A DNA stretch of 64,000 nucleotides from an uncultured Bacteroidota bacterium (GCA_963772715.1 CAVYYM010000033.1:220549-284548); one strand, 5' to 3'; shown: positions 14,272-59,704, numbered from the stretch's first letter. Translations and numbers: made by a program. The notes: generated by a model not told the origin, from the letters alone.

Positions 14272-14376
14272 AAGTCTTGCAAGTCTTGCAGGTCTTGCAG
14301 GTCTTGAAGGTCTTGAAGGTCTTGCAGTTTTGCAGGACTTGGCAGGACTTGCAGGACTTGCACGACTGGCAGGACT
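14272..14376. repeat. Tandem-unit hairpin, locus A (9-nt units GTCTTGCAG / TGCAGGACT)
   Basis: The left arm has about 6 tandem copies of (A/G)GTCTTG(C/A)A. A TTTT loop follows, then a right arm of about 5 copies of (T/G)GCA(G/C)GACT. The arms are complementary with one U-G position per unit on the plus-strand RNA. The element starts 3 nt from the ppk2 stop. Confidence 0.85.
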
Positions 14377-14378
14377 AA

Positions 14379-15242
14379 TCAGTATTTCTCAGGAACAAAT
14401 GTCTGATCGGTCATCGGGGGCCTTACATAGGCTACATCATGTTTCAAGGGGGGCAGCTTGAAGGGTTTGGGGGTCAGGTCTTTATACGGGATCAGTGTCA
14501 GGAGGTGGTTGATCGTATTGAGCCTGGCTCTCTTCTTGTCGTCGGCGCGGACAACGTACCATGGTGATTGTTTGGTATCGGTATAGGAAAACATCTTGTC
14601 TTTGGCCATTGAATATTCCACCCATTTATCGCGCGATTCAACATCCATAGGGCTTATCTTCCATCGCTTTGTCGGATCCTGGATCCTGTCCTGAAACCTC
14701 TTTTCCTGCTCATGGTCGCTCACTGAGAACCAGTATTTGATAAGGATAATTCCTGATCTGATCAGCATTTTTTCGAATTCGGGACAAGATCTGAGGAACT
14801 CCTCATATTCTTCGTTTGTACAATAACCCATTACCTTTTCCACCCCAGCCCTGTTGTACCAGCTCCTGTCGAAAAGGACTATCTCCCCGCCGGCAGGGAG
14901 CTGTGTCACATAACGCTGAAAATACCATTGCGATTTTTCCTTTTCGGTGGGAGTACCAAGAGCGACTATCCTGCAGATCCTTGGATTAAACAGCCTGCAA
15001 TTGTTTTATAACCCCTCCTTTGCCAGCTGCGTCCCTTCCTTCAAAGATCACAACAACTTTGAGCTTATTTGCCTTTACCCACTCCTGAAGCTTCACAAGC
15101 TCTATCTCCATTTTCAGAAGGCTTTTTTCAAAATCACAGAACCAAGCTTTTCCTTCTGTTCCTGTTTTACATCATGATAAAGATCTTCCTTATCAAATTT
15201 CCTGACAGCAGCTTTCTTTTTCTTCTTATCGTGTGATCCCAT
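14379..15242 (-). pseudogene. ppk2: Polyphosphate kinase 2 (PPK2) with two opposite frameshifts
   Basis: ORF 14379..14909 encodes only the C-terminal two thirds (LPAGGEIVLFDRSWYNRAGVE...). Upstream, the Walker A segment EIELVKLQEWVKANKLKVVVIFEGRDAAGKGGVIKQL lies in a second frame, and MGSHDKKKKKAAVRKFDKEDLY... lies in the original frame. ATG at 15242 to the stop is 864 nt, so the net shift is zero. Confidence 0.8.
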
Positions 15243-15271
15243 GGCAAAAAGATTAGAATAAAGAAGAAAGA

Positions 15272-15305
15272 TAATAAAAAATCCTGAAAATCAAGATTTT
15301 CAGGA
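15272..15305 (-). terminator. Intrinsic terminator
   Basis: On the minus strand, a 10-bp perfect stem TCCTGAAAAT/ATTTTCAGGA with a CTTG loop is followed by TTTTTTATTA. Confidence 0.6.
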
Positions 15306-15307
15306 AT

Positions 15308-15400
15308 TAAAGTTTAAAGTGCCTAAAGTTTGGAGTACTAAAGTTAAAAGGATTAATTATGATTATAACTAACTCTAAGTACTTTAGGCACTCCAAACTA
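15308..15400. repeat. Tandem-unit hairpin, locus H (units around CTAAAGT / ACTTTAG)
   Basis: AGTGCCTAAAGT (15318-15329) pairs perfectly with ACTTTAGGCACT (15381-15392). Flanking units (AGTTTAA.., TTGGAGT, ACTAAAGTT versus AACTCTAAGT, CCAAACT) extend an imperfect long stem. Confidence 0.6.
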
Positions 15401-15482
15401 TTGTATAAAGGGTATTGCCAGCGGATATTTGAATTTCTCTCCTTTTGGAGCTTTTATGCTTGCAATGATTATACATATGATT

Positions 15483-15740
15483 TTAAGTGTTACCAGGAAC
15501 ATCAATAATCGGGATGCCAACAATGATGAACAGAAGAGGAATAGTAAGCACGATATAAAGCAGGATCGAAAGCTGAAAGTTCATTGAAGCTTTGCCGTTG
15601 TCATCGACCCATGCAGATTCGTCTTTTCGGGAGAACCAGCAGATCAGAGGACCTATTATACCTCCGAAGGGAAAAAAGAACATGCAAAGCCTGAAAGATG
15701 ACAGAGCATAGCCCAGTTCCTTTCCGATTCTGATAATACT
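15483..15740 (-). pseudogene. DUF4870-like small membrane protein, frameshifted
   Basis: ORF 15483..15683 starts mid-domain (FFFPFGGIIGPLICWFSRKDESAWVDDNGKASMNFQLS). The expected upstream motif NWAMLCHLSGFA lies in another frame. The junction is at an A6/T6 run near 15673-15680. The 5' limit is approximate. Confidence 0.6.
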
Positions 15741-15806
15741 TTAATCTCTTCCTTTGCCTTAAGCTGTTGTTTATTAAAAAGACGGAATTATTTTGATCAA
15801 TGATGC

Positions 15807-16130
15807 ATTATTCAAATCTTGAAAGCCGTTTCAGGTCAGAAGGCAGAAGTCCGTTCGGATTGGATTTATCGATAGTAGTGAAGATTATAATAATACATAT
15901 TGGCATCATCGGTGCCTATAAACATTTTAAAGCAATATCCTTCATCCTTTTCTCTCCCCACAGGCCCAACCTTATGCAGAAAAACAGTGTCGGAGCTTTT
16001 GCTCTATTGCTTCCACAATTTCCTCTTCGGCACAATCTCCATCATTATATGAATATATAGCTTTTATCCTTGCAATAGTGCCGATATCAGGAGTAAGGTC
16101 CTCCTGCTTTAACAAGATTGTCTTATTCAT
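15807..16130 (-). pseudogene. Small conserved-looking hypothetical protein, two frame changes
   Basis: Manual translation gives MNKTILLKQEDLTPDIGTIARIKAIYSYNDGDCAEEEIVEAIEQK.., then DTVFLHKVGPVGREKDEGYCFKMFIGTDDANMYYYNLH.. in a second frame, then TIDKSNPNGLLPSDLKRLSRFE* back in the first. The ATG overlaps the upstream stop (TAATG). Confidence 0.45.
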
Positions 16131-16667
16131 TATTCAGGGATATTCTCATTATAGTATTTCAGATATTTCCTTCCGGTTTTTGAAGGGTCCTCTCCATTAT
16201 CAGGTTGCATGCTTCTGCATAAATTCAAGTATGGCTCCAAGCTTATAGCCATATTCAAGATCATCTTCGCCTGCATATGAAAGAGGTACGGCACAAATTT
16301 CCGGCATTCTCACACAGCTTATCAACATTCTTTCCCTGAAGAAGGTTTATGAAATTAAAAACCGAATTTGTCTTATCATTTTCAAAATTGGTCTCCGTAA
16401 GGACAATGAAATGAATAATGCCGGTTTCAGCCGCCTGACATTGAATTCCTTGGCATCAATGAATTCATACGGAGTCATCTTCCAGTATTGCTTCATGGCA
16501 TCCTTAATATATGCATTAAATGCGGAAAAAGGGTCATCTTCAAGAACAACACATGTTTTTGATCCACTGAACTGCTTTATTTCATCCTTGTTTGGGAAGG
16601 GTGCCTGCCCTGCAAACCGATACAGGAAGGAGGACGGAACCGTGATAGAAAATAATATTTTCATCAT
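16130..16667 (-). pseudogene. Hypothetical protein, at least two frame changes
   Basis: ORF 16347..16667 (MKILFSITVPSSFLYRF...EFNVRRLKPA) continues plausibly only in other frames (IVLTETNFENDKTNSVFNFINLLQGKNVDKL; PLSYAGEDDLEYGYKLGAILEFMQKHA; ...YLKYYNENIPE*). Confidence 0.45.
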
Positions 16668-16669
16668 TA

Positions 16670-17415
16670 TTATTGATTTACAGGTATATACAGTGGATTT
16701 TTTTCATTGAACTTCCGAATATAAACGAACATCAGATCTTTCCGGTCTTTCCTGGGAAGCCTGACATATTCCTCATAAAGCTCACTGTCTTTCATCAGCA
16801 GCAATTCGTGTTTTTCTGGTCGAATTCAAGGATTTTGCCGTTTTCAAAATCTATAAGATATTGTTTAATCTCATTCCTCGACATATTGTTACGTCCGTAG
16901 GGTGAATAATATGATCCATAGGGGAATAGTAATTGCCATAACCGTAAGGGTGAATAATAGTATGGATCATAATAGTCCTCCATATGGAGAATAATAACGG
17001 CTGTCATAAGTCGTTACATCAGCAACAAAATGACATATGCTTCCCACAAAGGTAATCCTGTTGAAATTTTTCTGAACCTGAATATAAATAACCCCATTCC
17101 TTGCATATCCCCGATATTGCTCACTTCTAATTTCCTGCCTTATCCCATACCGTCATAGTAATAGATCTTTTCAGATTCCAAAAGCTTCTTGAAGAATTCC
17201 TTGTCGTTATAGTCTGTGGATGTAAGAAGCTGTGCTTTCGGTATCGGGCTGTTCTGCTTCACCTGGTCGAAATTAACATAGATGCCATCCTTAAACCTGA
17301 AATCAGGAGTATACTTAACCATTCCTTCCTGGCCCTGCCCGTTCAACGTGAACAACAGATAGCAACTGAAGCATACAGTGGCAGTAAGAATAAATATCCT
17401 GAAAAATTTCCTCAT
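16670..17415 (-). pseudogene. Secreted hypothetical protein with Tyr-rich (YYSPYG) region, at least three frame changes
   Basis: ORF 17140..17415 carries a signal peptide. Continuations lie in other frames (IRSEQYRGYARNGVIYIQVQKNFNRITFVGSICHFVA) and in ORF 16795..17007. The C-terminus LLLMKDSELYEEYVRLPRKDRKDLMFVYIRKFNEKNPLYIPVNQ* is reached after a shift at an A5 run near 16800. Confidence 0.45.
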
Positions 17416-17518
17416 AACAATAGCGATTTACCTTTCCCGTTCAAATATCATACCGTTTGGGCAAAATTAACCATTTCCTTGAAAGGGTGTTAAATACGCG
17501 CTAATGATATATTTATTA

Positions 17519-17526
17519 TATATTTG
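17519..17526 (+). promoter_or_regulatory. Candidate -7 box (TATATTTG) upstream of the sensor kinase remnant
   Basis: Plus-strand match to TAnnTTTG in the AT-rich spacer. This is a motif match only. Confidence 0.25.
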
Positions 17527-17689
17527 CTTAATTTTACAAAATTCAAAAAAAACAGTATGGCCAAGGAAGCCGAGACAAGATAATAGTACAGATAATCAAA
17601 ACAGTACTGGCGAATCATATGAAAAGCACCGAAAGAAGATTCAAGATCTGTTCATACTTTGAGTCATTACAGGATAATCATTGCTCTAC

Positions 17690-18910
17690 TTATGCTTAAT
17701 GTTAATACTATAATCTTATTGCAGGAGTTATAATCATCATTGTCTGCATCCTGCATGGACGTACCTGATCAGGAAAGCCATCAGGACTTGATAAAGCGTA
17801 CAGGATTCATTAATGATGTATCATCCTCAATGAACAGAAAGATAATGTGATAACTGACTTTTCGCATAAGATCAGGGAACCTCTGAATAATCTCGTGATC
17901 ATTACCGATATGCTTATGGAGTCAGGCCTTCAGAAAAAGCAAAAGGAACTTCTGGAAACTTTTGTTGCCTCAACAAACAACATGGTTACATACTGTTAAT
18001 GAATTAACAATGCAATCGGCCGGTAATCTGAGCTATGAGACCAAGAAAACATATTAGGTTCAATCTTTTATCAACAATCCAGAACACAATAGAGCTTTAC
18101 AACCTTAAGGATAAGGCCAATATCGATTTTATTCTTAACAAAAAGGAATTCGGTGATTTTGAATGTTTTGGAGATCCAATAATTCTTAAACAGATATTCC
18201 TCGACATTTTCAACATAATTGAAACACAGAATACTCGGAAAGAACGACCAAAGTTACAATTAACCTGAAAAGGGAGAAAGAGACCGGAAACGAAAATCTT
18301 ATAGGATTCAGAATCCAGACTGACAAGAACATGGTACTGATAGATGAAAATGACTCTGAGCACAGTCTTGCTGCAAGACTTATTATCAACAGAAGGGCAC
18401 TTACAGCCAGGAATCAGGAACAGAATTACACCGTTCTGAATATAACTCTTCCGTTTGCAAAAGTGTCCATGAGACAAAACAAATATTGCCTCCCAGAAAA
18501 TTGAAGAGCTGATTCAGAAGGAAAAGGTTCATAAGGAGCTGAAAGACATTAAGATACTTCTGGTTGAAGATAACCTGATAAACCAGAAAATAACACTTCT
18601 CACCCTTAAACCGCTTGTAAGCAGTATTGATACTGCATCCAACGGAAAAGAGGCTCTCGATAAATTCGGCACTGCCAACTACGACCTGATACTGATGGAT
18701 ATCCAGATGCCTGTAATGAGCGGACTTATTGCAGCAGAAAAGATCAGAGCACTTGAGTCAAGTACCAATACCCATGTTCCGATAATTGCAATAACTGCAA
18801 ATGCAATGATCGGCGATAAGGAAAAATGCATCTCTGCAGGAATAGATGATTATATCAGCAAGCCATTCCAGCCATCAGCCCTGATTGAAAAGATCAAGAA
18901 ATTCATTTAG
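17690..18910 (+). pseudogene. Hybrid sensor histidine kinase / response-regulator receiver, fragmented by at least four frame changes
   Basis: The H-box FSHKIREPLNNL sits at about 17859. A degenerate HATPase region follows (ORF 18035..18268, then ...YTVLNITLPFAKV). An open REC-domain frame runs 18473..18910 ([16 protein letters not shown]...[14 protein letters not shown]...ITANAM...DDYISKPF) with no upstream ATG. The 5' limit is approximate. Confidence 0.7.
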
Positions 18911-19941
18911 TTCTCCTGAAAGAGGTTTGAATCCGATGACCATCATGTCATCGATCTGCTGATTGCCCGCCATCCATGTTTTTATATTTTCATCCAGAAT
19001 CGATTTCTGGTCATTGACCGGGAAACTGTGAATCCGTGTAAGCAGATACCTGAACCTCCTGTACATGAACTTCTTGTTTTCGGTGCCTCCAAACTGGTCA
19101 ACATAGCCATCGGAAAATATATAAAGAATATCATTGTCAAGCAGTCCAGCTCATGGGATGTGTATTCCATCCTTTCAGGATTCATGCCGATAATTATTTT
19201 GTCTCCCTTTAACTCGGTAAGGGTATTGTCGCGGATAAGGTAAAGCGGAAAAAAGGCTCCGGAATACTCAAGTTTTCTTTTCTTCCTGTCAATGACGCAG
19301 AGACCTATATCCATACCATCCCTGATAATTGTTCCCATATTCTTTTCCCTGCTGAATGTTTTTTCAAGAGCCCTGTTCATTACAGCCAGAATTGCTGAAG
19401 GCTTTTCAATATTATCTTCGAGTATTGCTTTTTCGATTATCTCCAGACCCACCATCGACATCAGGGCTCCGGGCACACCGTGTCCGGTGCAATCGGCGGC
19501 AACAACGAAAATCTTGCCTCCCTTTTCACCGATCCAGTAAAAATCGCCGCTGACAATATCCTTCGGCCTGAAAAAAATAAAGGAGTCACTGAAATGTTTT
19601 CTGAAAAACACCTCGGACGGCAAAAGGGCTTCCTGTATCCTCTGTGCATATATCAGACTGTCAGTCAGATTTTTGTCCCGCAGTTCAAGTTCATGCTTCT
19701 GCTTTTCAATCTGTTCAAGAGCCTGCTCCTTTTCCTTCAGCACCTGACGGGTTAAAAACAGACTCCGTGTCTGGGATATAATTGAAATGAGAAGAAAAGC
19801 CAGCGCAATGAAAAGAAGAATTCTCATTGAAAACTCAGGGAGATTCAACCATACGTTGTACAGTGAACCTGCAGGCGCAAAACAAAACACCGAACATGGC
19901 AGATAACCATATATCAGAAGAGTACTCATGCTATTCTGCAA
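18875..19941 (-). pseudogene. Membrane-anchored PP2C/SpoIIE-family serine phosphatase, one frameshift
   Basis: ORF 18982..19941 contains the SpoIIE core (SGDFYW...VAADCTGHGVPGALMS...). After ..YTSHELD the homologous continuation LLDNDILYIFSDGYVDQFGG..MYRRFRYLL.. lies in the frame of ORF 18875..19066. The total length is 1067 nt, not a multiple of 3. The junction is near 19140-19150. Confidence 0.75.
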
Positions 19942-19990
19942 AAATAGTTAAATTGAGCAGATCGGGCTTTCAGTTCACGGAATTTGACAA

Positions 19991-21811
19991 TCAGAAATTT
20001 ACATTTACTTCGTCAAAGCCGGGAAATGACAGATGTGAGTTCTTTATGGAAGGAGAAGGGATAAAAGGACCGAGTTCAAGAGATCCCCACTTTTTGTCGA
20101 TGGCATCGACAGTGTCTCGTGAGGAAACGACTACATTAGGCCATTTTCGCAAGAAACCGCCTTCGCGGAAAGCTTTGGCTGTGCCATCGATGAAAAGCAG
20201 GTTCTCAGAAAGCAGTTCTGTATCACGCAGGGGATCCGAATTGCCGAGAACCTGCCATGCAACCTGGTATAAATCATTAACATCCACGGTTTTATCAACA
20301 GCGAGTATCAGCCGGAGATCATCCTGAATGTGAATTGCCTCCAATTCCTTTTTTGCTTTTCTGACTGCCTGCCGATCTTCAGCCTGGTTCAGTCCCGTAA
20401 CAATCATTCTCCTTCCATCAGAAGGATGAGGCGGTATTGTCTCAGGCATCTCTTCATCAAGCTTCATAGTGGCATCAACACCCAGTTTGCCTCCGAGGGC
20501 AGGTATCTCGGAAGTATGGTCAAGCACATCGAGCGGACCTGACATAAAGAGCAGATCCTTATTGAATGCAGCATTCCTGAAAACATGATCCATAACCTGA
20601 CTGTAATTCCTGATATCGACATCACCGCTTACAACCACAAGATATTTGGTGAACATCATCTGTCCTGCTCCGAACAATGAGCTTATGACTTTCTTGCCCT
20701 GGCCAGGGTATGATTTCCTGATCTTTACTATTACCAGGTTATGGGCAACACCAGCTGCAGGCATGTGAAAGTCTTCTAATTCGGGCAGGATCGCCAGTCT
20801 TAGCGGTGCCAGAAAGATCTTTTCAGTCGCTTTGGCCAGCCAGGCATCCTCCATAGGCGGAATACCGACAATGGTTGCAGGGTAGACAGCTTTCCGGGAA
20901 TGAGTTATGCATGTCACATGAAATCGCGGATAGAAATCGGCCAGGGAATAAAAGCCCGTATGGTCGCCAAAGGGTCCTTCAAGCACGGGTTCTTCTGCAG
21001 GATCGACATACCCTTCAATGACTATATCTGCATCTGAAGGAACATAGAGGTCATTGGTAAGGCATTTTACCAGCTTTACCTTTTTCTTCCTGAGAAATCC
21101 CGCAAGAACATACTCGTCGATGTTTTCAGGCAATGGTGCAGTCGATGCGTATGTGTATACCGGATCTCCTCCCAGGGCTACGGAAACAGGCATTTTCCCA
21201 CCGGTTTTCTTCCATTCCCCGAAATGGACTGCACCTGTTTTATGTCGCTGCCAGTGCATCGCAGTGGTCTTATTATCAAGTATCTGCATCCTGTACATCC
21301 CGACATTTGTTTTACCTGTGACAGGATGCACTGTATGGACCATAGGAAGGGTGATGAAGCGGCCGCCGTCATGAGGCCAGCATTTGAGGACAGGAAGAAT
21401 AGAGAGGTCGGGCTCCCGGTGGATCACCTGCTGGCAGGCACCTTTGCCTTTACTGCGGACAGGAAGGTAACCTGAGATCTTTATCAATGAGGGCAGGGAA
21501 GATATTTTTTTCAGCAGATTGTCTTTTGAGTCAGTAAGAGCAGAGAATGTATCTGCAAGATCATTTGCTGCCTCCTCCAGGTCTTTCCTGCTTATGGCCA
21601 TTGCCATCCGTTCATCGGTACCGAAAGCATTAATGAGTAGTTGAAAGGACGTGCCGGTATTTTCGAAGAGCAGGGCTTTCCCTCCGGATTTGGATATGCG
21701 GTCGGTGACTTCGGTTATTTCCAGAACAGGATCGACGAATACACGGATCCGATGAAGCTCTGAATGCTTTTCCAGATCGTTGATGAAATCGGATAGGCCG
21801 TGATATGGCAT
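19991..21811 (-). CDS. UbiD-family decarboxylase (menaquinone-biosynthesis-decarboxylase-like long form)
   Basis: The ORF spans 19991..21889. The likely start is MPYHGLSDFINDLEKHSELHRIRVFVDPVLEITEV at 21811. UbiD core motifs run throughout (ALLFENTG, RMQILD, GGDP). Confidence 0.85.
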   Translation of the reverse strand: MPYHGLSDFINDLEKHSELHRIRVFVDPVLEITEVTDRISKSGGKALLFENTGTSFQLLINAFGTDERMAMAISRKDLEEAANDLADTFSALTDSKDNLLKKISSLPSLIKISGYLPVRSKGKGACQQVIHREPDLSILPVLKCWPHDGGRFITLPMVHTVHPVTGKTNVGMYRMQILDNKTTAMHWQRHKTGAVHFGEWKKTGGKMPVSVALGGDPVYTYASTAPLPENIDEYVLAGFLRKKKVKLVKCLTNDLYVPSDADIVIEGYVDPAEEPVLEGPFGDHTGFYSLADFYPRFHVTCITHSRKAVYPATIVGIPPMEDAWLAKATEKIFLAPLRLAILPELEDFHMPAAGVAHNLVIVKIRKSYPGQGKKVISSLFGAGQMMFTKYLVVVSGDVDIRNYSQVMDHVFRNAAFNKDLLFMSGPLDVLDHTSEIPALGGKLGVDATMKLDEEMPETIPPHPSDGRRMIVTGLNQAEDRQAVRKAKKELEAIHIQDDLRLILAVDKTVDVNDLYQVAWQVLGNSDPLRDTELLSENLLFIDGTAKAFREGGFLRKWPNVVVSSRDTVDAIDKKWGSLELGPFIPSPSIKNSHLSFPGFDEVNVNF

Positions 21812-21860
21812 AGAAAGATAAAAGACCAAAGATAAAAGATGGGGGTATATAAAACAATAA

Positions 21861-21888
21861 TGGGAACTATTCCGAGGAGTAGTTCCCA
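21861..21888 (-). terminator. Intrinsic terminator or attenuator hairpin about 50 nt upstream of the ubiD-family start
   Basis: On the minus strand, a 9-bp stem in TGGGAACTA-CTCCTCGGAA-TAGTTCCCA is followed by TTATTGTTTT. Confidence 0.55.
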
Positions 21889-22355
21889 TCCACCGTTTAC
21901 GACCGAAGCCGTTAACGGAGTCGGATTACTGTTATTCCGGCCGGCTGCATTACAGGTCTTACGATCTGGTTTTGCAACCCATGGCTTTCAGGTCCTGCTT
22001 GTTATGGCAGATCCTTACGGCTGTCCTTTTTTTCCAGCCTTTCGGCCGGACATTCCAGGACGAAGTGTCCTTCAGGCTCCGGTGACATTTCCCGGAGGAT
22101 TTGTTACCAGTTTCAGTTGACTTGGGGCCGAAGCCCTTCGTTTCCCTGAAGCCCTGTGACCCAGTCGTTGAAAGAACGTTTCCGGTTTTCTACGACCTGC
22201 TGAACATCCGGGATTGGTCTGGGACCAGGTTCCCTTTGCTCAGGTTTCGGCTCTCTTGATGCGCAGACCCGAGGGTCTGAATGATCCGGATTGTGTTTCA
22301 TTTAAGTAACCTTTTCCGGTTCCACATCGTTCAAGCAGCCTTTTATCGCTCACCC
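21861..22355 (-). ncRNA. Candidate structured RNA of unknown class (about 0.5 kb)
   Basis: It fills the 580-nt spacer between the eno stop and the ubiD start. It is visibly more GC-rich than its flanks. On the minus strand it has several short helices closed by UUCG, GAAA or CUCG loops (22264-22279, 22125-22136, 22058-22070, 22034-22049, 21900-21923) and a CUCCGG/CCGGAG helix. There is a 5' -7 box and a 3' terminator. ORFs in the region have non-protein-like composition. The class is unassigned. Confidence 0.35.
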
Positions 22356-22362
22356 GATAGAT

Positions 22363-22370
22363 CAAATATA
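22363..22370 (-). promoter_or_regulatory. Candidate -7 box (TATATTTG) upstream of the structured region
   Basis: The minus strand reads TATATTTG within an AT-rich tract about 100 nt downstream of the eno stop. This is a motif match only. Confidence 0.3.
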
Positions 22371-22469
22371 TATCAAGAATATCAAAAAACCATGTAAACG
22401 AAACCCATGTTGTAAACCCGATATAAACAGGAGTTATCAACAATTGTTAATAACGCCGGAAAGGGTCCA

Positions 22470-23753
<1,284 letters not shown>

Positions 23754-23786: not shown

Positions 23787-23823
23787 AAAAAAAAGGGATA
23801 ATGATCATTATGACATATCCCTT
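23787..23823 (-). terminator. Intrinsic terminator after rplQ (end of the ribosomal supercluster)
   Basis: On the minus strand, an 8-bp stem AAGGGATA/TATCCCTT is followed by a T8 run. Confidence 0.6.
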
Positions 23824-23846
23824 TCAGCTTAAAATATTTATTCTGT

Positions 23847-26067: not shown

Positions 26068-26133
26068 TATTTCGGATTTCGAATTTCGGATTTCGAAATT
26101 AAATCCGCAATCCGAAATCCGCAATCCGCAATT
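26068..26133. repeat. Tandem-unit hairpin, locus B (7-nt units ATTTCGG/ATTTCGA versus AATCCGC/AATCCGA) inside the alpha operon
   Basis: It has four heptamers per arm. On the transcribed minus-strand RNA I pair about 25 positions by hand, with two G-A mismatches and one G-U. It lies between the rpsK stop (26137) and the rpsD start (26033). Confidence 0.85.
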
Positions 26134-44242: not shown

Positions 44243-44325
44243 AAAAATCTGTAGCGGCGTTGCATGCAAAATGGCGCTGGTGCATGCGCCAAGGCGGTGT
44301 TGCATGCAACGCCGCTACAGATTTT
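44243..44325. repeat. Tandem-unit hairpin, locus G (three about 20-nt units each containing GCATGC); probable bidirectional terminator
   Basis: The outer 24-bp inverted repeat is perfect: AAAATCTGTAGCGGCGTTGCATGC / GCATGCAACGCCGCTACAGATTTT. An inner unit reads GGCGCTGGTGCATGCGCC. T-runs follow on both strands. It lies between convergent genes. Confidence 0.85.
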
Positions 44326-50886: not shown

Positions 50887-50994
50887 GATAAATATTAAAA
50901 CGCTGCAAAAATGAGAAAACTTTTTTAGTTTACAAAGTTTTCATAGATAAATTGCTATTGCAATTCTGTAAAAAAGCGAAATTTACCGGTGAGT

Positions 50995-51090
50995 AACGGC
51001 ACAAAGGCACAGAGGCGCAGGGGCTCAAAGGCTAAATCGCTGCTGTGCCGTTGAGCCGTTGAGCCGTTGAGCCATTGAACCTTTATACCT
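50995..51090. repeat. Tandem-unit hairpin, locus D (8-nt units nCAnnGGC versus TGAGCCGT)
   Basis: The left arm is AACGGCAC AAAGGCAC AGAGGCGC AGGGGCTC AAAGGC. The right arm is TGTGCCGT TGAGCCGT TGAGCCGT TGAGCCAT TGAACCTT TATACCTT. The conserved GGC/GCC and CA/TG cores pair. It lies between the divergent tetR and phzF-like starts. Confidence 0.8.
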
Positions 51091-51098
51091 TTATATAT

Positions 51099-51899: not shown

Positions 51900-51900
51900 A

Positions 51901-51998
51901 AAAGGCTCAATGCCTCAGCGGTGCAATGGCGCAAAGGTTTTTGGAAAAATTTATTATCTTGCCATTGTGCCTTTATGCCCTTGCGCCGTTGTGCCATT
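51901..51998. repeat. Tandem-unit hairpin, locus E (8-nt units, same class as locus D)
   Basis: The left arm is AAAGGCTC AATGCCTC AGCGGTGC AATGGCGC AAAGG. An AT-rich loop follows. The right arm is TGCCATTG TGCCTTTA TGCCCTTG CGCCGTTG TGCCATTA. It starts 2 nt after the phzF-like stop. Confidence 0.75.
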
Positions 51999-52031
51999 AA
52001 AATATTGATTACTAACCAAACAACAATACAA

Positions 52032-52448: not shown

Positions 52449-52454
52449 CGCGAA

Positions 52455-52543
52455 GCGCTATCATGCGATCATGCTATCGTGCAATCGTGCTATCCTTGAC
52501 ATTTTTTGATTGCATATGCGATTGCAAGATTGCATGATCATCA
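52455..52543. repeat. Tandem-unit hairpin, locus F (8-nt units ATCnTGCn versus GATTGCAn)
   Basis: The left arm is GCGCTATC ATGCGATC ATGCTATC GTGCAATC GTGCTATC. The right arm is GATTGCAT ATGCGATT GCAAGATT GCATGATC. It lies between convergent genes and abuts both stops. Confidence 0.8.
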
Positions 52544-53771
52544 CCTATAGAGATAAACGAATCCCCTGTACTCTTTTGAGTCATACTTGACATCATCCCA
52601 GCCATAGGCGCGGATTATGTAGAAGTATACTCCTGGTTGTGCTTCGGTCGAGGAGTTATTTACCTTTCCGTCCCAGCCATCCCAGCTCATCAGACGCTCG
52701 CCATCCCCGGAAAATGCGTAAACTTTCAATCCCGACTGGCTGAAAACCTCCATACTCACGAAACGGAGCGATTTGGATTCGATCCTGAACTTGTCGTTAT
52801 AACCGTCTTCATCAGGAGTGAAGACATTCGGTATATTCAGGGAGGAGGGGACCACTTTTATTGTTTCGGACCTGACCGAGTCGATGCAGTGGAGATCGCT
52901 CTCGATTGTCAGAAGTACGGTATATTCACCGGGCTTGTAATAAATATGTGGCGGCGGATTCTGAAGATGAGAGATTGTATCATCGCCAAAATCCCATAAA
53001 TAGATATCTCCTCTGACCGATTCATCCGTGAAGCTCACCTCAAGAGGAGCCTCACCCTCATTCGGATCAACTGAGAAATCGGCATTTACGTGTATCGATT
53101 CATAAAAGAAGGAAGACTCGCTATTGCATCCAAGGGAGCTGACTTCAAGCTTATATGTCACATCCTCGAGGGGTGGTGTGTAGGTGACGGGATTGATTTC
53201 GACATCCGGATAGGGTATTACCGATGCCGGATCAGATGACCAGAGAAATGTAATCACGTTTTTCTGCGTTACGGCAGCAGCAGTTACCGGATCTTTATAT
53301 ATAAAGTTAGCCGTCGTCGCTTCGGCTCGTCCCGCCAGTGCAACCCTGTTGCACAACTGTTGTTGAAGGCTTGCTTCTGCAATTGGAGGCGTATCAAAAA
53401 AGATCCATCCTGTAAATGTCTTTACAGTAATGCCTGAACTGTCAATCTTAACTCTGTACCCACCCCAGTCAAGGTTATTTATTGTAGAAACAGTTACTCC
53501 AATATGCGTGACAATGAATGTGCTGAAGCTTCCGGTTCCGTCATTCCATTTATACCAGGAATAATCGTAAGTTCCCGTTCCCCATGGCCTTTGTGCAGTC
53601 AGGGTTCCTTTTTCAGTCCCCAACAGCATTGCAGTAAAAGAAGATCGGATCCTTAACCGCAGGTGAGGAAGGATAAGAGGTATATTTGATCGATTTCGCG
53701 CCCGGGGCAGAAAGCTGCGCCACGACCGATACCGGCAAAAGAAAGACAATTATTGAAAACCAAAAACGCAC
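52541..53771 (-). pseudogene. PKD-domain surface protein with T9SS type B C-terminal sorting domain, one frameshift near the N-terminus
   Basis: ORF 52541..53749 ends with the CHU_C/type B CTD (PNVFTPDEDGYNDKF...GVYFYII...GFVYLYR). The signal peptide (MRFWFSIIVFLLPVSVVAQ from a GTG at 53771) and ...DPIFFYCNAVG lie in another frame. The junction is at a G4/C4 run (53618-53621). Confidence 0.7.
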
Positions 53772-53855
53772 AGGCAGTCTGAAATTTCTTAATTAACGGT
53801 TCCCACCGGACAATTTGTATAATCCGGTGCAAGTTTAATAAAATCTGAAGATTTT

Positions 53856-54179
53856 TCAGTCCGTATGGAAGACTTCTTCCATATCGGCCCACCATTCACC
53901 CTTTGCTCTTGTTGTAACCGGATCCTGCATAGGTTCCATAACAGCCCACCACTCCTGAGTTTTCGGATCTGCTGCCATTTTTGCCATATCGGCAGCAAAA
54001 TCATTGCCGGTATATTCAAAATATGCAAACAGCCTGTAGTCTTTATGAAAGATCGTATAGTTCCTGATATTGCATTTTTTTATCATATCAAGGACTTCCG
54101 GCCATACTTCAGAATGGTATTTTTTATACCGTTCAAAATGTTCCGGTCTTACTCCAATTATCTGTCCGTATCTTTTCAT
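53856..54179 (-). CDS. rhaM: L-rhamnose mutarotase family protein
   Basis: 107-aa ORF, MKRYGQIIGVRPEHFERYKKYHSEVWPEVL...NYTIF...EWWA..., which is RhaM/DUF718-like. Confidence 0.75.
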   Translation of the reverse strand: MKRYGQIIGVRPEHFERYKKYHSEVWPEVLDMIKKCNIRNYTIFHKDYRLFAYFEYTGNDFAADMAKMAADPKTQEWWAVMEPMQDPVTTRAKGEWWADMEEVFHTD

Positions 54180-54353
54180 GTTTATATAATTATTTCATAA
54201 TGATAAAAGTATATAAAATTAAAGGTTGTACAATATCGATCTATCCGGGCAATCTGTTAATAAATATTGCTCATAATTCTTCAACTACCCGCTTCCCTGA
54301 GATTGTATTTGTTATTTTTGCCTTCCCGGAACGCTGTAATTCCGAAAACAAGA

Positions 54354-56627: not shown

Positions 56628-56659
56628 ATGCAATAGCGCTTTAGAGGCAATGGAATGCC

Positions 56660-57646
56660 TTATTTCTGTTCCCCTGCCTGGTTGAAATTCATCTGCCGCA
56701 ATGGGAATCCTGCCGGGCTCATCGTATGATTGAAACCTGTATTGATCTCTTTGGTTTCTGATTTCATCGCCAGTTTGCCCTTTTCATCATATGATTCCAT
56801 CGCCAGCGTCGCAGCATCCCGGAGCTCAGGATTGTCAAAATAGGGAGATATCCCTGCTTTTGAGAAAGTTCTCTTGTCGGCTTTCAGCTTCAGATCTTTG
56901 GTCAGCCATACTTTATTGTACTCTTTTTTACCGGTTTCCTTTACCAGGTACTCGTCGCATTTATAACCTGCGATCACCCTGCTGTTCCCTGTCCTGGTTA
57001 CCGTAGGTTTAGGAGTCTCCGCCTCAGAGGCTGTTTCATCGGGCACATCGCTGATGATCCCTATTTTTGTTCCTCCCATTTCGCTAAGCATAAGAAATGA
57101 TTTGTTTGTGCCATCATAAATGAATGACGAAGACATAGCAATCTGGTCTCCATCATCAGTGGTTCCTGCAATTTTTGATTCTACTCCTGCATCGGGAGAC
57201 GAATCGCTGAAATAAATATAATAATCCATTTTCACAACGTCCTTGCCATCGTACATCTCAGCCTGCATGTAAATCCTGTTGTTGAATGAATAGGATTCGC
57301 TGTATTTTGACGTAACCGGGCCTCCTCCCAACATGGCGCCGAGGTTGAAACCACCGCCACCCTGGTCTGTTCCTTCCTTATTACCCTCCTGTTTGGCAGA
57401 TTCACCTTCCTTTTGATTTTCAGCATTGCTCTTTTCAATATCCTCCTCTATTTTAACTGCAGCCTTATTGACTTCTTCCTCTGCTTTCTTTTCTATTTGC
57501 CTGTCAGCTTCTTTGTCTGCTGCATTTACACCTGCATCTACGGCTTTGTTGACCTTGCTTCTCAAATACCCTCCTACCTGTCCGCTGGTAAATGATGTAA
57601 CAGCAAAAATCAGGATCACAGACAGAATAATTGATTTAGTTCTCAT
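56660..57646 (-). CDS. Secreted hypothetical protein (DUF4412-like C-terminal domain, Glu/Lys-rich N-terminal region)
   Basis: 328-aa ORF with a signal peptide and a low-complexity EK-rich segment, followed by a beta-rich domain (GYKCDEYLVKE...). The family call is tentative. Confidence 0.6.
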   Translation of the reverse strand: MRTKSIILSVILIFAVTSFTSGQVGGYLRSKVNKAVDAGVNAADKEADRQIEKKAEEEVNKAAVKIEEDIEKSNAENQKEGESAKQEGNKEGTDQGGGGFNLGAMLGGGPVTSKYSESYSFNNRIYMQAEMYDGKDVVKMDYYIYFSDSSPDAGVESKIAGTTDDGDQIAMSSSFIYDGTNKSFLMLSEMGGTKIGIISDVPDETASEAETPKPTVTRTGNSRVIAGYKCDEYLVKETGKKEYNKVWLTKDLKLKADKRTFSKAGISPYFDNPELRDAATLAMESYDEKGKLAMKSETKEINTGFNHTMSPAGFPLRQMNFNQAGEQK

Positions 57647-57694
57647 TTTTGAAGTTTTAGGGAATAAAAAGTAAAGTTACAAATTTTCAAAATA

Positions 57695-57729
57695 CAAAAA
57701 AACCTGCCGGAACCAAAGTTCGCGGCAGG
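57695..57729 (-). terminator. Intrinsic terminator after the 57770..58531 gene
   Basis: On the minus strand, a CCTGCCG/CGGCAGG stem is followed by a T7-8 run. Confidence 0.6.
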
Positions 57730-57769
57730 CTGAAAACTGATTAAGGAAGTAAGTGGATGCTAAAATTAT

Positions 57770-58531
57770 CTATACAGCTACTGCTTCGGGTTCTGCAGGT
57801 TTTTCTTTCTCGATAAGAACCGACTGGTACAGTGAGGCGAATGAGCTTTTTACCCAGATGTCTGCAGCTAATACCCCGACAAACATAAGGATGAATCCAA
57901 ATATATAGATGAAGAACGAAACAAATCCCATAAGGAATATTGTCCATCCATGGCCCCTCGTAAGCTTCCAGCTCAATTCAACCGATTCAATAGGATCAAG
58001 TTTCTTATCCATAACAATATATGGCACGAAAGCCAGACGGCATGCTATGATTATACCAGGAACAATCAGCGCAAAAAGACCTATGGCGACAAGGGCAAAA
58101 ACCAGCAGGTTGGCGAGTATGATATTCAGGTAGTTGGTCCAGAAACCCTTTATGAGCCATTCAAAATCGGGTTTGATTTTCCTTACAGATTCCACGAAGA
58201 TCATCTTGGCGCCATATTTTATTACCGGCAATGCCAGGAATGTATAGGCGAGAGCCAATATACCGATAAAAATCGCCAGAGCTCCCAGCGAGGCGATACC
58301 GAATATCTGGCCCCAGTCTCCATTCCAGTGATCAAAGTTGAAATTCCCGAAATCATGTTTGTCAAAATTGAAATTAAGGCCCCCCATCGGACCAGTAAGA
58401 GCCGCGAGTACTATAACCACCAGCAATAATCTCAGGAAGTTGTTAAACATTACATTCCACCCGGTCCCAAAACTGTCGCCAAAGGTTGGGAACAGTTTAT
58501 ATTCTCTGATTTTTTCCATCGTTGCATTCAT
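57770..58531 (-). CDS. Multi-pass integral membrane protein (DUF975-like, tentative)
   Basis: 253-aa ORF with 5-6 hydrophobic helices. I recognise no catalytic motif. Confidence 0.65.
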   Translation of the reverse strand: MNATMEKIREYKLFPTFGDSFGTGWNVMFNNFLRLLLVVIVLAALTGPMGGLNFNFDKHDFGNFNFDHWNGDWGQIFGIASLGALAIFIGILALAYTFLALPVIKYGAKMIFVESVRKIKPDFEWLIKGFWTNYLNIILANLLVFALVAIGLFALIVPGIIIACRLAFVPYIVMDKKLDPIESVELSWKLTRGHGWTIFLMGFVSFFIYIFGFILMFVGVLAADIWVKSSFASLYQSVLIEKEKPAEPEAVAV

Positions 58532-58651
58532 GACATTTAATTTTGGTTAATATTTCAAAGCAAATGTAAACCCCATTTTGAAGACAGGCTTCATACTATA
58601 GTATTGAATTTTAAATTTCCTACTTAAGTATGGTGGCAATACTTTAGTAGG

Positions 58652-58721
58652 AATTTCGAATTTCGAATTGCGGATTGCGGATTGTAAAAAAATCCGCAAT
58701 CCGCAATCCGCAATCCGAAAT
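58652..58721. repeat. Tandem-unit hairpin, locus C (same CGGATTG/AATCCGC heptamer family as locus B)
   Basis: The sequence is AATTTCG AATTTCG AATTGCGG ATTGCGG ATTG, then a TAAAAA loop, then AATCCGC AATCCGC AATCCGC AATCCGA AAT. The central arms pair perfectly. It lies between two divergently oriented gene starts. Confidence 0.85.
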
Positions 58722-58744
58722 AAACTGAATACCTTTATGTCATA

Positions 58745-59674
58745 ATGCTCAGGATCCTCTTCTATCTGGTTTTTATTTTAACCGTGGCTCTTACGTCTGC
58801 AGGTATCATTCTTGCATCACGGCTCCGAAACAACAATAGATCGGAAATATTCTCCCCTCTTCTCTATTACCAGGTCTTCATATTTACCTTTGGATTCTAC
58901 GGGATATGGGGTCAAGTGCTCATAAAGGCATTCCTGGCTGCCTACATTTCCCCCGGGCTTTTTACCCGCTTTTCCAATATGGCACTATTGATGGGGCTTC
59001 CATTCCTGGTATTTGCATGGCTGATGCTGATACAGTTCGCATCAGGTATCTCAGGCAGAAAGACAGGCGGATGGGCTGTTTTCTCATTCCTTTTCGGAAA
59101 TTTCTCCATACTCTTCATCCTGGGTTATTTTATCGCGAGCAAGAATATAACCGAACCCGCCAGGCTCGTCAAGAACTATTATATCCTGATGAGTGTGATC
59201 TGGTCGCTGATTGCTTCATACCTTATCCATTTGCCAATAAAAGGTAAGGAGACGGTTCATGAGTATGACAGAAAAATAACATGCACCCATGATTTCCATC
59301 ATCAGTATGTCTCAATGTATACCGCTGGTGTTTTATACTTCGGAATCGTGGCTGGCATTGATCTTCATCTTTGTCTTTTTCCTTGGAAACACATTTCTTC
59401 CTGTATATTTCAGCTATGGGACACTACGCCCATTTCTGCAACAGAACCTGCAAGAGACCTGTCATTTGAGCAATTCTGCAGAAAATTCGAAGTATCGCCG
59501 CGTGAGACCGATATTGTTCGGGAAATATGTAATGGACTAAGCAATAAGGAAATATCTGAAAAACTATTCATCAGCCTGCAGACTGTAAAAGACCATACTC
59601 ACCGGATTTATATCAAGACCAATGTAAGAAGCAGGGTGCAGCTGATCAATTTAGTAAAAGGAAACTCGAAATGA
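58745..59674 (+). CDS. Multi-TM N-terminal domain fused to a LuxR-type HTH (possible hidden frame excursion 59285-59460)
   Basis: 309-aa open frame with five clear N-terminal TM helices and a C-terminal LuxR HTH (SPRETDIVREICNGLSNKEISEKLFISLQTVKDHTHRIYIKTNVRSRVQL). The overlapping +1 ORF 59289..59540 encodes two more TM-like helices. Confidence 0.7.
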   Translation: MLRILFYLVFILTVALTSAGIILASRLRNNNRSEIFSPLLYYQVFIFTFGFYGIWGQVLIKAFLAAYISPGLFTRFSNMALLMGLPFLVFAWLMLIQFASGISGRKTGGWAVFSFLFGNFSILFILGYFIASKNITEPARLVKNYYILMSVIWSLIASYLIHLPIKGKETVHEYDRKITCTHDFHHQYVSMYTAGVLYFGIVAGIDLHLCLFPWKHISSCIFQLWDTTPISATEPARDLSFEQFCRKFEVSPRETDIVREICNGLSNKEISEKLFISLQTVKDHTHRIYIKTNVRSRVQLINLVKGNSK

Positions 59675-59677
59675 ATG

Positions 59678-59704
59678 GTCGTGCAATCATGCAATCTGCA
59701 ATTC
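59678..59704. repeat. One-armed tandem-unit array, locus I (GTCGTGCA ATCATGCA ATCTGCA; same class as the locus F left arm)
   Basis: It lies directly after the LuxR-type gene stop. I found no complementary arm within the next 60 nt. Confidence 0.5.

Follow-up and report, generated by a model that had tools for sequence, protein, structure and literature searches.

Among intergenic repeats, arrays very similar to those described here are the GGGAATC/GGGANTN heptamer arrays of Xanthomonas campestris and X. axonopodis (Rehm et al. 2015, PMC4692102). They number 186 per genome, including 70-75 convergent pairs, are 89-93% intergenic at an average of 28 nt from the upstream ORF, are hypervariable between species and are mostly transcribed, with no function found (PMC4692102). 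Long simple-sequence repeats (LSSRs) of 5-11-nt units (Mrazek et al. 2007) and the STRR heptamers of cyanobacteria are given a polymerase slippage origin and a sporadic phylogenetic distribution, as summarised in two later papers (PMC4679880, PMC4692102). A further heptamer, TAACTGA, occurs in Beggiatoaceae, Cyanobacteria and some Bacteroidetes, with 169 direct sets against one indirect set (MacGregor 2015, PMC4679880).

We analysed a 64-kb stretch of DNA (the window) from an uncultured Bacteroidia genome, which constitutes our data on that genome. Two inverted runs of 7-9-base units, able to form long imperfect hairpins, fill each of several gene spacers in it, and these paired inverted arrays are real, fast-changing features of the spacers. 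The initial annotation recognised no named element class in them; the convergent degenerate heptamer arrays of Xanthomonas are such a precedent. In both cases head-to-tail degenerate short units with fixed conserved and variable positions are dispersed between genes; two nearby convergent arrays (the 70-75 cases per genome in Xanthomonas) can form a stem-loop or cruciform; and the arrays adjoin the end of the upstream ORF and vary in length and sequence between close species. The window thus holds the opposite-strand paired arrays, intergenic and near the upstream ORF, by which the Xanthomonas type is defined (PMC4692102). In contrast to the single G-rich, G-quadruplex-capable unit of Xanthomonas, with its preference for four units, there are here at least four non-G-rich classes of 7, 8 and 9 nt, and GGYNYARN, AATYCGN, GCNATCRT and GWCNTGCAN all lack the required runs of three G. 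Moreover, almost all arrays here are paired, and two of the nine loci initially listed lie in divergent spacers, which are under-represented in Xanthomonas. With the LSSRs and STRR heptamers our arrays share tandem short units, prominent heptamers and intergenic position; as far as the summaries of those repeats go (PMC4679880, PMC4692102), they describe one-armed direct arrays, and inverted pairing and a constraint on pairing positions lie outside their definition. TAACTGA arrays are similarly short heptamer arrays in spacers, often just before start codons, as are a TATCTTT array before UbiD in the window and arrays in the related contig L005, but they are almost always direct, have a single unit sequence and form no hairpins.

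Array loci in the window

The initial annotation had assigned nine loci to one architecture. Seven of these are real, whereas 15308-15400, with its weak periodicity, and 44243-44325, to all appearances a bidirectional terminator, fall outside the group. Six of the seven are two-armed (14272, 26068, 50995, 51901, 52455 and 58652), and the seventh, at 59678, indeed has no partner arm. A tandem-repeat finder (TRF) run on the window recovered period-7, -8 or -9 arrays at all seven (14274-14373, 9 nt, 11 copies; 26069-26132, 7 nt; 50998-51078, 8 nt; 51960-51999, 8 nt; 52457-52538, 8 nt; 58651-58721, 7 nt; 59682-59702, 8 nt), and a periodicity scan found 14 array clusters in the window, whereas 50 Markov resamples averaged 2.9 and never exceeded 8. 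By both methods, therefore, these are head-to-tail 5-11-nt units longer than chance, as in LSSRs. Seven of the eight clusters with periods of 7-9 lie inside the non-coding ~14% of the window; one such cluster scored 0.37 coding because the crude gene map took TTG 51075, and not ATG 51099, for the start. The loci are all intergenic, as had been proposed, and start or finish 2-6 nt from stop codons, and an inverted-repeat check confirmed the arm pairs. RNA folds of the loci reach z-scores of -3.2 to -9.9 against dinucleotide shuffles, and DNA folds -1.7 to -8.7; the array hairpins measure 25-45 bp and are interrupted by periodic mismatches, and the loops of the window hairpins span ~6-21 nt.

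The 9-mer array at 14272-14376 lies between the stop codon of a PPK2 pseudogene (14379) and the promoter and ATG (~14228) of hisS, with a -7 box (TATTTTTG) between hairpin and ATG. Its 5' arm comprises six copies of GTCTTGCAR (14274-14327) and its 3' arm 4.5 copies of the GACTTGCAG type (14338-14376). Each unit consists of the quasi-palindrome CTTGCAAG and one further base, changing from T to A at position 2 between the arms; TRF reads the whole as a single 11-copy array of 86% identity, and it folds at -64.9 kcal/mol on the plus and -37.2 on the minus strand. Upstream of the start of the same pseudogene, 15308-15400 belongs to the set only marginally: it is an imperfect hairpin of 19 bp whose TAAAGT motifs are spaced 8/16 nt apart, and its period-16 structure is weak (75% matches in TRF). 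A separate canonical terminator-like hairpin is present at 15281-15308.

Two loci consist of 7-mers. The array at 26068-26133, with GCGGATT and YCGAAAT arms on the mRNA strand, lies in the alpha operon, past the rpsK stop (26137) and ahead of the rpsD ATG (26033), and that at 58652-58721 (ATTTCGA/ATTGCGG, then four copies of AATCCGC) separates divergent genes with ATGs at 58531 and 58745, a TACCTTTA box following it at -15 of a LuxR-type gene. Two others share the 8-mer class GGYNYARN. The first, at 50995-51095 between the divergent TetR (ATG 50886) and PhzF (ATG 51099) genes, has five GGYNYARN units in the 5' arm and three GTTGAGCC units decaying into ATTGAACC and TTTATACC in the 3' arm, the outer 3' units overlapping the probable PhzF promoter (TACCTTTA at -13). 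The second, at 51901-51998, follows the PhzF stop (51899) and precedes the DUF1761 ATG (52023); no promoter box was found downstream of it, and it therefore probably lies inside an operon. Another 8-mer array (GCNATCRT / GATTGCAN) at 52455-52543 fills the spacer of the convergent DUF1761 and CHU_C genes. The one-armed array at 59678-59704 on the plus strand, with 2.8 copies of the GCAATCAT type, begins 3 nt past the LuxR-type stop codon, and its fold is not above that of shuffles. We also found a one-armed heptamer array, absent from the initial annotation, at 21814-21840 on the minus strand: its TATCTTT/GGTCTTT units stand directly upstream of the UbiD ATG and contain a TAnnTTTG box, with orthologous arrays in the relatives L235 and L239. 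Finally, 44243-44325 is a near-perfect palindrome with 41-nt arms, flanked on each side by A/T runs; it separates two convergent genes (EF-G-like and P-II), has three GCATGC motifs, is not built of 7-10-nt units and looks like a bidirectional intrinsic terminator.

Other known features were compared with these loci. CRISPR arrays have 25-50-nt repeats and unique spacers, whereas the units here are 7-9 nt and contiguous; invertible promoters have inverted repeats around a promoter-bearing segment of ~100-300 bp, far longer than the loops here. At gathering score, Rfam 15 has no match at the hairpins and finds only a TPP riboswitch in the window; its matches at 26.1 kb fall below threshold and correspond to generic hairpins of miRNA type.

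Unit classes, pairing and turnover

Units of 7, 8 or 9 nt, arranged head to tail, make up each arm. In the consensus of 84 units, GGYNYARN, positions 1, 2 and 6 are 94-98% invariant, transitions outnumber transversions by 67 to 10 at positions 3, 5 and 7, and the nearly free positions 4 and 8 are the unpaired positions of the stem; the same rule is visible by eye in AATYCGN, GCNATCRT and GWCNTGCAN. With pairing positions nearly invariant or varying by transitions only, the arms can therefore pair in any register, unit with any unit. Shuffling the unit order within arms left the fold no worse in 10 of 12 hairpins. When six array hairpins were folded as DNA, the minimum-energy structure took up 19% of the ensemble at 52455 and 0.3-5% at the other five. 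The arms of the 9-mer class differ systematically at a single position only, where pairing demands T in one and A in the other; this is seen in the window, in L218/L221 and also in L257, an unrelated contig. Judged from the sequences, arm complementarity exceeds what homogenisation would give.

This one window contains a minimum of four or five unrelated unit classes, whose periods are 7, 8 and 9 nt, and arm order is constant within each class. Of the three classes proposed to recur at separate loci, two stand by scan, GGCNCANN matching 14 times at 51.0 and 51.9 kb where 0.75 are expected, and AATCCGN 10 times at 26.1 and 58.7 kb where 0.05 are expected. In the formal scan all 5 matches of GCNATCNT (0.47 expected) are at 52.5 kb; the 59.7-kb array (GCAATCAT GCAATCT GCAATTCC) has too few clean units for the GCNATCNT pattern and carries the 52.5-kb unit by eye only.

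Orthologous spacers of relatives differ both in presence or absence of arrays and in unit number, with flanks conserved where presence/absence and class change. In the 5' arm at 26068, L001-L003 have three units against four in the window, with identical S11; the hairpin is absent in L235, L236 and L239, where the rpsK-rpsD spacers are 36-46 nt long, and S4 is 92-93% identical in the relatives lacking it. By this comparison the rpsK-rpsD hairpin is a lineage-specific insertion. At 50995 the 5' arms of the window and L227 are identical, whereas the 3' arm is homogenised to three GTTGAGCC units in the window and three GTTGTGCC units in L227; in L217 and L220 the 5' arm is built of 7-nt units and faces a 3' arm of 8-nt units, and the arms of this PhzF locus are remodelled among 95-97% relatives. 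The 51901 hairpin is present in L217, L219 and L220/221, represented by the 5' arm alone in L218 and absent in L004, L222 and L224. The DUF1761/CHU_C spacer holds the 9-mer of 14272 in L218, L221 and L222, GGYNYARN in L004 and CCAGTNAA in L005. Close relatives thus show the variation in copy number and units that slippage gives LSSRs.

Unit sequences and architecture also recur farther afield. In viral contigs there are 62 stretches of four AATCCGN units against 3 for one scrambled control, making them ~20 times commoner, and GTCTTGCAA/GACTTGCAA recurs in the unrelated 53%-GC contig L257, both of which hint at sequence-specific causes. The same architecture is found in GC-rich phage-like contigs (L082).

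Origin and possible effects of the arrays

The initial annotation preferred dispersal or a shared generating mechanism to independent local slippage. The latter alone is indeed insufficient, because non-homologous loci, and other genomes too, carry the same unit classes; slippage is nevertheless clearly operating, with unit-number differences among strains and one arm homogenised to different variants. Element dispersal is not demonstrated either, because copies share the unit alone, and no common ends, loops or target-site duplications were seen among the window loci or at the filled and empty sites of relatives. The chance is, in our judgement, about even that the loci are quasi-palindromic minisatellites, that is, LSSRs in convergent pairs shaped by slippage together with a complementarity constraint. 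Heptanucleotide LSSRs have been ascribed to polymerase slippage (Mrazek 2007, as cited in PMC4679880), and template-switch mutation has been described at quasipalindromes (PMC7202029). Slippage-type events change arm copy number and unit variants quickly, each arm independently; the structures are tolerated only between genes, coming and going among relatives; and the hairpins have no fixed register. Selection on how single-stranded DNA or RNA folds, intrastrand template switching, or both may keep the arms complementary. Periodic mismatches may prevent the structures from becoming long perfect palindromes, which are unstable. The few recurring classes could reflect ectopic hairpin-to-hairpin copying or repeated emergence from favoured cores such as CTTGCAAG, TTCGAA and GCAA. 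Against this reading, slippage leaves both the shared classes and the constant arm order unexplained, the 60-nt rpsK-rpsD hairpin arose without a visible seed, and the AATCCGN and L257 recurrences hint at sequence specificity.

Unit classes common to non-homologous spacers and different genomes, together with constant arm order, presence/absence of loci and the rpsK-rpsD insertion, would suit non-autonomous REP/REPIN- or MITE-like hairpins copied by a transposase elsewhere in the genome, for example of Y1/RAYT type, with slippage secondary. A 7-mer 5'-arm allele common to L217 (97% PhzF identity) and L220 (80%), against the gene tree, also points this way. Like REP/BIME, the array hairpins are extragenic imperfect palindromes, located downstream of genes and inside operons, and would plausibly have the same effects, such as mRNA 3' protection, partial termination and recombination hot spots. 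REPs, however, have units of 20-40 nt that follow a family consensus and carry a GTAG or CGTC tag; they depend on a RAYT gene, and their near-identical copies number in the hundreds. In the present loci the tag is absent and only the 7-9-nt unit is shared, ends and loops differing, which excludes a REP/BIME family consensus; likewise, no clean boundaries or target-site duplications of a MITE appear at filled and empty sites. As initially noted, no RAYT-like gene, nor any other transposase, was found among the 49 window ORFs. A distant relative, L232, does encode a Y1_Tnp, adjoining an IS481, the only one seen; L232 is a different genome (72-78% nucleotide identity) with no such arrays in 20 kb. 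These points, and the occurrence of the architecture in phage-like contigs, make mobile hairpins unlikely.

Slightly less probable is a primary role as transcription terminators or attenuators. As with Rho-independent terminators, stem-loops begin 2-6 nt past stop codons, three loci lie between convergent genes, and the DUF1761/CHU_C spacer carries some hairpin in all relatives compared. Yet the combination of a G+C-rich stem and T-run exists only at 44243-44325, the sole locus with the T-runs on both strands that had been reported for it; elsewhere there is at most a weak T-run after any stem, and a consensus scan does not call them, whereas canonical short T-run terminators coexist in the window (~2054-2090, 23790-23830, 57700-57735). 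The array hairpins differ in their length, periodic mismatches and general lack of a U-tract, two of them lie inside operons (that at 51901 probably so) without a promoter box downstream, and orthologous spacers of relatives do without them. The hairpins at 50995 and 58652 precede TACCTTTA boxes at -13/-15 of the ATGs of the rightward genes and are thus probably upstream of the promoters of divergent genes. These boxes, and the lack of the rpsK-rpsD hairpin in relatives, agree with the earlier view that termination cannot explain the two divergent loci and that in the alpha operon.

We consider it improbable that the arrays are binding sites for a DNA- or RNA-binding protein, comparable to cooperatively bound heptad operators or a protein sponge, with the inverted layout reflecting the geometry of the bound protein. 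Conserved and degenerate positions are fixed and identical on both arms, one-armed arrays stand directly upstream of start codons (UbiD; two sites in L005) like TAACTGA arrays (PMC4679880), and AATCCGN exceeds its scrambled control, with several arrays per phage-like contig. Such sites, however, would hardly fall into so many unrelated classes in one window, change class at the same spacer or be remodelled within 95-97% relatives; moreover, the viral set shows no clear orientation bias relative to ORFs, and there is no candidate protein. An artefact of a repeat-prone, frameshift-rich assembly, suggested by several fragmented genes in the window and possible indel errors, has a negligible chance, being essentially refuted by the same structures in the same spacers of independently assembled metagenome contigs (L001-L003, L217-L221, L227, L004).

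If, then, the loci are paired minisatellites under a complementarity constraint, their effects on the host would be REP-like side effects at most. G-U pairs give no consistent sense-strand advantage, for which reason an RNA-level role is unproven. In divergent spacers, upstream of promoters, the arrays would probably do nothing specific; once transcribed, past stop codons and in operons, they may act as REP-like 3' structural barriers modulating mRNA decay or read-through.

Arrays of short inverted units in the spacers of the window

The array feature of the window is real and statistically solid. The initial annotation had described nine intergenic hairpins with arms built of degenerate 7-10 nt tandem units, and TRF recovers arrays of period 7, 8 or 9 at seven of these nine loci, with an inverted-repeat finder joining the arrays into inverted arms. 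The other two were rejected as array hairpins: 15308-15400 is instead a 19-bp hairpin with weak period-16 structure, and 44243-44325 is a near-perfect palindrome that does have the annotated T-runs on both strands and reads as a bidirectional terminator. When folded as RNA, the two-armed loci, named here by their start coordinates, give z of -3.2 to -9.9 relative to dinucleotide shuffles, and the one-armed locus at 59678 gives no fold signal in this comparison. Our own periodicity scan detected 14 array clusters in the window, against a mean of 2.9 and a maximum of 8 in resampled sequence. All but one of the eight clusters of period 7-9 fall within the non-coding 14% of the window, in agreement with the intergenic placement first proposed. 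Pattern scans of the window returned 14 matches to GGCNCANN, the pattern of the GGYNYARN 8-mer class, at two separate loci (50995 and 51901; 0.75 expected), 10 matches to AATCCGN, likewise at two separate loci (26068 and 58652; 0.05 expected), and five matches to GCNATCNT, the pattern of the GCNATCRT 8-mer class, at 52.5 kb only (0.47 expected). Three unit classes had been thought to recur at separate loci; two do so by pattern counts, but the 52.5/59.7-kb pair is recognizable by eye only, the 59.7-kb array being too short and imperfect for the GCNATCNT pattern.

Co-directional genes flank the hairpins at 14272 (PPK2 pseudogene stop and hisS), 26068 (rpsK and rpsD, within an operon) and 51901 (PhzF and DUF1761). 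Those at 50995 (TetR and PhzF) and 58652 (a gene of unknown type and a LuxR-type gene) lie between divergent genes, and convergent genes border 52455 (DUF1761 and CHU_C) and the one-armed 59678 (a LuxR-type gene and thiamin pyrophosphokinase). The start or end of a hairpin lies 2-6 nt from a stop codon, confirming the earlier remark that loci begin close to stop codons. With the exception of 44243, the stems are followed by at most a weak T-run, and a consensus terminator scan calls none of them; canonical short terminators with T-runs are found elsewhere in the window. The majority of the loci are other than canonical terminators. At PhzF and the LuxR-type gene, TACCTTTA occurs at -13/-15 from the ATG and resembles the Bacteroidetes -7 box, TAnnTTTG, so that both genes probably have no leader or almost none. 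In that case, the 50995 and 58652 hairpins lie upstream of or overlap the promoters, outside the mRNAs concerned, and the argument that a terminator role cannot explain these divergent loci holds. A reading of the arrays as stacked -33 (TTG) promoter elements fits the GGYNYARN array upstream of PhzF, but was dropped because the AATCCGC class has TTG in the opposite arm.

The window belongs to an uncultured Bacteroidia genome, as judged from its T9SS/CHU_C and GldD genes and from its closest public relatives, a MAG from Lac Pavin sediment and Bacteroidales UBA1800. Several of its genes are broken, with pieces in different frames at 14379-15243, 15800-18910 and 59735-63453. These include PPK2, thiamin pyrophosphokinase, an NMN transporter and a TonB-dependent receptor, as well as three genes whose homologues in the comparison locus L236 encode products of 448, 240 and 284 aa. 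Long genes elsewhere, such as AcrB (1027 aa) and UvrD (786 aa), are whole. The broken genes are either clustered pseudogenes or local assembly errors. A gathering-threshold Rfam scan of the whole window returned only a TPP riboswitch (63506-63599, - strand; 57.8 bits versus a gathering score of 54.3), which sits upstream of the fragmented TonB-dependent receptor/NMN-transporter/thiamin pyrophosphokinase cluster. Rfam E-value scans of the 26.1 kb and 21.8-22.5 kb regions yielded nothing meaningful.

Constraint within units and turnover among relatives

An alignment of 84 units of the 8-mer class, drawn from both arms of nine loci in seven genomes, gives the consensus G G Y N Y A R N. Positions 1, 2 and 6 are 94-98% invariant, positions 3, 5 and 7 vary by 67 transitions versus 10 transversions, and positions 4 and 8 are nearly free. 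In the predicted stems, of the form '(((.(((.', the unpaired slots are the free positions of the unit. By eye, the same rule is apparent in the AATYCGN, GCNATCRT and GWCNTGCAN classes, the last being the 9-mer of the 14272 locus. Constraint falls on the positions that pair, and the unpaired ones are free to vary. Because the pairing core is common to all units, the arms can pair in any register; in DNA folds the MFE structure accounts for 0.3-5% of the ensemble in five of six array hairpins, and for 19% at 52455. Permuting the order of units within arms left the fold no worse in 10 of 12 hairpins, and such permutation is powerless as a test of selection for pairing since pairing is independent of register. 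We also set aside a sense-strand G-U advantage as evidence for a role as RNA, since comparison across orthologues gives inconsistent results and no consistent folding advantage of the sense strand. The 9-mer unit is itself a quasi-palindrome (CTTGCAAG plus one base), as a result of which TRF reads 14274-14373 as a single 11-copy array. The halves of this locus differ systematically at one site only, with T in one and A in the other, as pairing of the arms requires, and the large strand asymmetry of the locus arises because both arms are one direct array of the quasi-palindromic unit.

Comparison of orthologous spacers, as had been proposed, uncovered variation in both presence and unit number. 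At rpsK-rpsD, three comparison loci with identical S11 (L001-L003) retain the hairpin, with three units versus four in one arm. In relatives with S4 92-93% identical the spacer is 36-46 nt long and the hairpin is absent, pointing to a lineage-specific gain within the alpha operon; this short spacer also rules out an S4 leader. The PhzF locus was compared across eleven metagenome relatives (61-97% protein identity) along with L004 and L005. Here, the TetR-PhzF hairpin is hypervariable between strongly conserved flanks, namely the probable TetR operator palindrome, AAATTTACCGGTGAAT and ACCTTTATACCTTTATATATATG. Between the window and L227 the 5' arm does not differ, but the 3' arm has been homogenized to GTTGAGCC x3 in the former and to GTTGTGCC x3 in the latter; L217 and L220 have 7-nt units opposite 8-nt units; the loops of L004 and L220 contain foreign insertions; in L219 and L224 the hairpin is G/C-rich and unrelated, and in L226 it is missing. 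Five relatives have the PhzF-DUF1761 hairpin and three lack it. The DUF1761/CHU_C spacer of the relatives always holds a hairpin of some kind, with the unit class differing between genomes: GCNATCRT in the window, GGYNYARN in L004, CCAGTNAA in L005 and, in L218, L221 and L222, the 9-mer also seen at 14272. The arms, each independently, change by gain, loss and homogenization of units, and the loci occur in spacers only, where they turn over between conserved flanks. In L218 (4802-4895) most of DUF1761 is gone and only the 5' arm of the PhzF-DUF1761 hairpin is left, joined at a TTGCA microhomology to the last ~12 codons of DUF1761. This fusion indicates a deletion, and suggests that arrays serve as deletion end points.

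An allele of the TetR-PhzF 5' arm built of 7-nt units (GGCTCAGGGCRCAGAGCRCAGGGCA) is common to L217 (97% PhzF identity) and L220 (80%), and an allele of 8-nt units to the window and its 95%, 86% and 82% PhzF relatives; this distribution disagrees with the gene tree, and could stem from recombination, old polymorphism or convergence. The probable TetR operator is the palindrome GAAAACTTTTTTAGTTTACAAAGTTTTC, located upstream of TetR at about 50915-50945; relatives keep it down to about 69% PhzF identity, and L226 and L005 have it in slightly altered form. Distinct from the arrays is a REP-like element of ~60 nt, composed of two nested hairpins (GCTGGCGCG...GGCAC...GCGCCAGC), which is found in four copies upstream of PhzF in L222/L223 (3605-3876) and once in the array-hairpin loop of L004 (9875-9935), and is absent from the window. 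In L232, a relative with 72-78% nucleotide identity to the window, 19097-20288 holds an IS481-type transposase gene and, after it, a Y1_Tnp gene (IS200/IS605 or RAYT-type) that is cut off by the end of the locus.

Another one-armed array, of TATCTTT/GGTCTTT heptamers, sits just 5' of the UbiD start codon (window 21814-21840, - strand). It has the same position in L235 (15216-15266) and L239 (7991-8037), is absent from L236, and its unit TATCTTTG is a perfect TAnnTTTG promoter box. Between the enolase stop (22470) and the UbiD ATG (near 21811) lies a non-coding block of ~500 nt (21851-22358, - strand) that is conserved far more strongly than the sequence around it in L235, L236 and L239. Several UUCG-type loops lie within it, a TAnnTTTG box is found just upstream (22370-22363), and it ends in a hairpin with a T-run (about 21890-21851). 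It has no match in Rfam even at E<=1, and RNAalifold, on only four sequences, predicts 148 pairs, 10 with compensatory changes, making it a candidate large structured RNA.

Distribution and precedents of paired arrays

Across 379 kb of Bacteroidia DNA, the unit classes of the window are restricted to the window itself, its relatives at the PhzF locus and L001-L003. From this set, syntenic 20-kb loci of more distant species (HU-based; 70-80% nucleotide identity) have only the one-armed TATCTTT array before UbiD, and a general scan of them added two weak unrelated arrays in L228. Among viral contigs, AATCCGN x4 is found in 62 stretches versus 3 for one scrambled control, mostly in contigs of 60-70% GC, several of which have multiple arrays. 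In contrast, GGCNCANN x3.4 is no more frequent than its scrambled control (73 versus 77 stretches), so the 8-mer class cannot be regarded as special. AATCCGN arrays show no clear bias with respect to ORF starts (22 versus 16), on ORF calls that are unreliable at 60-70% GC. By a strict criterion, 0/65, 0/69 and 3/63 of the viral-contig arrays have an inverted partner; it is therefore the two-armed layout that is unusual. This layout is not unique to Bacteroidia: in L082 (70% GC; 1700-4160), three consecutive spacers, all separating co-directional genes, are filled by two-armed arrays of three different classes (GCGGATT, ATTTSCA and CCGCAGATT), and L257 (53% GC) has GTCTTGCAA x4 followed by GACTTGCAA x9, with the unit and the T/A switch of the 14272 locus. 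L082 and L124, phage-like IMG/VR contigs of 66-70% GC, are dense in 7-9-nt arrays of numerous classes; L124 carries about 15 within 13 kb, seven of them AATCCGC-type. A BLAST query with the 58.7-kb hairpin gave no match among phage or plasmid records, probably through the low-complexity filter.

The initial annotation recognized no named element class, and we likewise found none in the literature for hairpins of inverted tandem arrays, but the paired layout itself is known in Xanthomonas. That report (Rehm et al. 2015, PMC4692102) describes 183-186 arrays of the heptamer GGGANTN per genome, with positions 1-4 and 6 conserved, which are 89-93% intergenic and lie on average 28 nt from the upstream ORF. 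They include 70-75 convergent pairs per genome that are potential stem-loops or cruciforms, vary extensively in length and sequence between two close species, and are mostly transcribed, with no function found. One-armed TAACTGA arrays are reported upstream of start codons, some in Bacteroidetes (MacGregor 2015, PMC4679880), heptanucleotide LSSRs are said to dominate in some genomes and are attributed to polymerase slippage (Mrazek, as summarized in PMC4679880), and in E. coli quasipalindromes are established sites of template-switch mutation (PMC7202029). The arrays of the window are best filed as paired short-unit arrays of the Xanthomonas type, the layout of paired convergent arrays being essentially one in both. 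However, they differ in comprising several non-G-rich classes of 7-9 nt, in belonging to a Bacteroidia host and in their clear structural constraint; conservation of the pairing positions, together with free unpaired ones and pairing in any register, is not described for the Xanthomonas repeats in the text of PMC4692102 that was consulted.

Maintenance, origin and significance

Complementarity between the arms may be kept through selection on the fold, through template switching, or through both. Perfect long palindromes are unstable (SbcCD), and periodic mismatches could spare the array hairpins this instability. Transcribed copies would behave like REP elements, and copies upstream of promoters are probably neutral.

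It is doubtful that the paired arrays constitute a distinct, widespread and unnamed extragenic class of register-free hairpins of inverted minisatellites, with constrained cores, spread from one spacer to another through some unknown process, such as template switching among hairpins or the action of an unrecognized enzyme, and common to distant lineages. This reading is compatible with the presence of AATCCGC and GTCTTGCAA/GACTTGCAA units in both a Bacteroidia genome and phage-like contigs of 53-70% GC, and with the three successive two-armed classes of L082. An origin from mobile elements or by copy-paste is similarly unlikely; it would accord with the reappearance of a few unit classes in spacers and genomes that are unrelated, the constant arm order within a class and the emergence of the rpsK-rpsD hairpin without a visible seed. 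No transposase or Y1 domain turned up among 49 ORFs scanned in the window, consistent with the previously noted lack of a RAYT-like gene. That the arrays are protein-binding sites is more improbable still, since the classes are numerous and rapidly exchanged.

As paired short-unit arrays of the Xanthomonas type, these loci mark fast structural change, as seen in the DUF1761 deletion junction within a hairpin arm of L218 and the loop insertions of two relatives, and they remodel DNA beside promoters and operon junctions, including rpsK-rpsD. Short-read assemblies are likely to break at them, and for uncultured Bacteroidia they would be usable as VNTR-like strain markers. Their pattern of constraint offers a concrete handle on the question of whether such hairpins are selected structures or mutational by-products.
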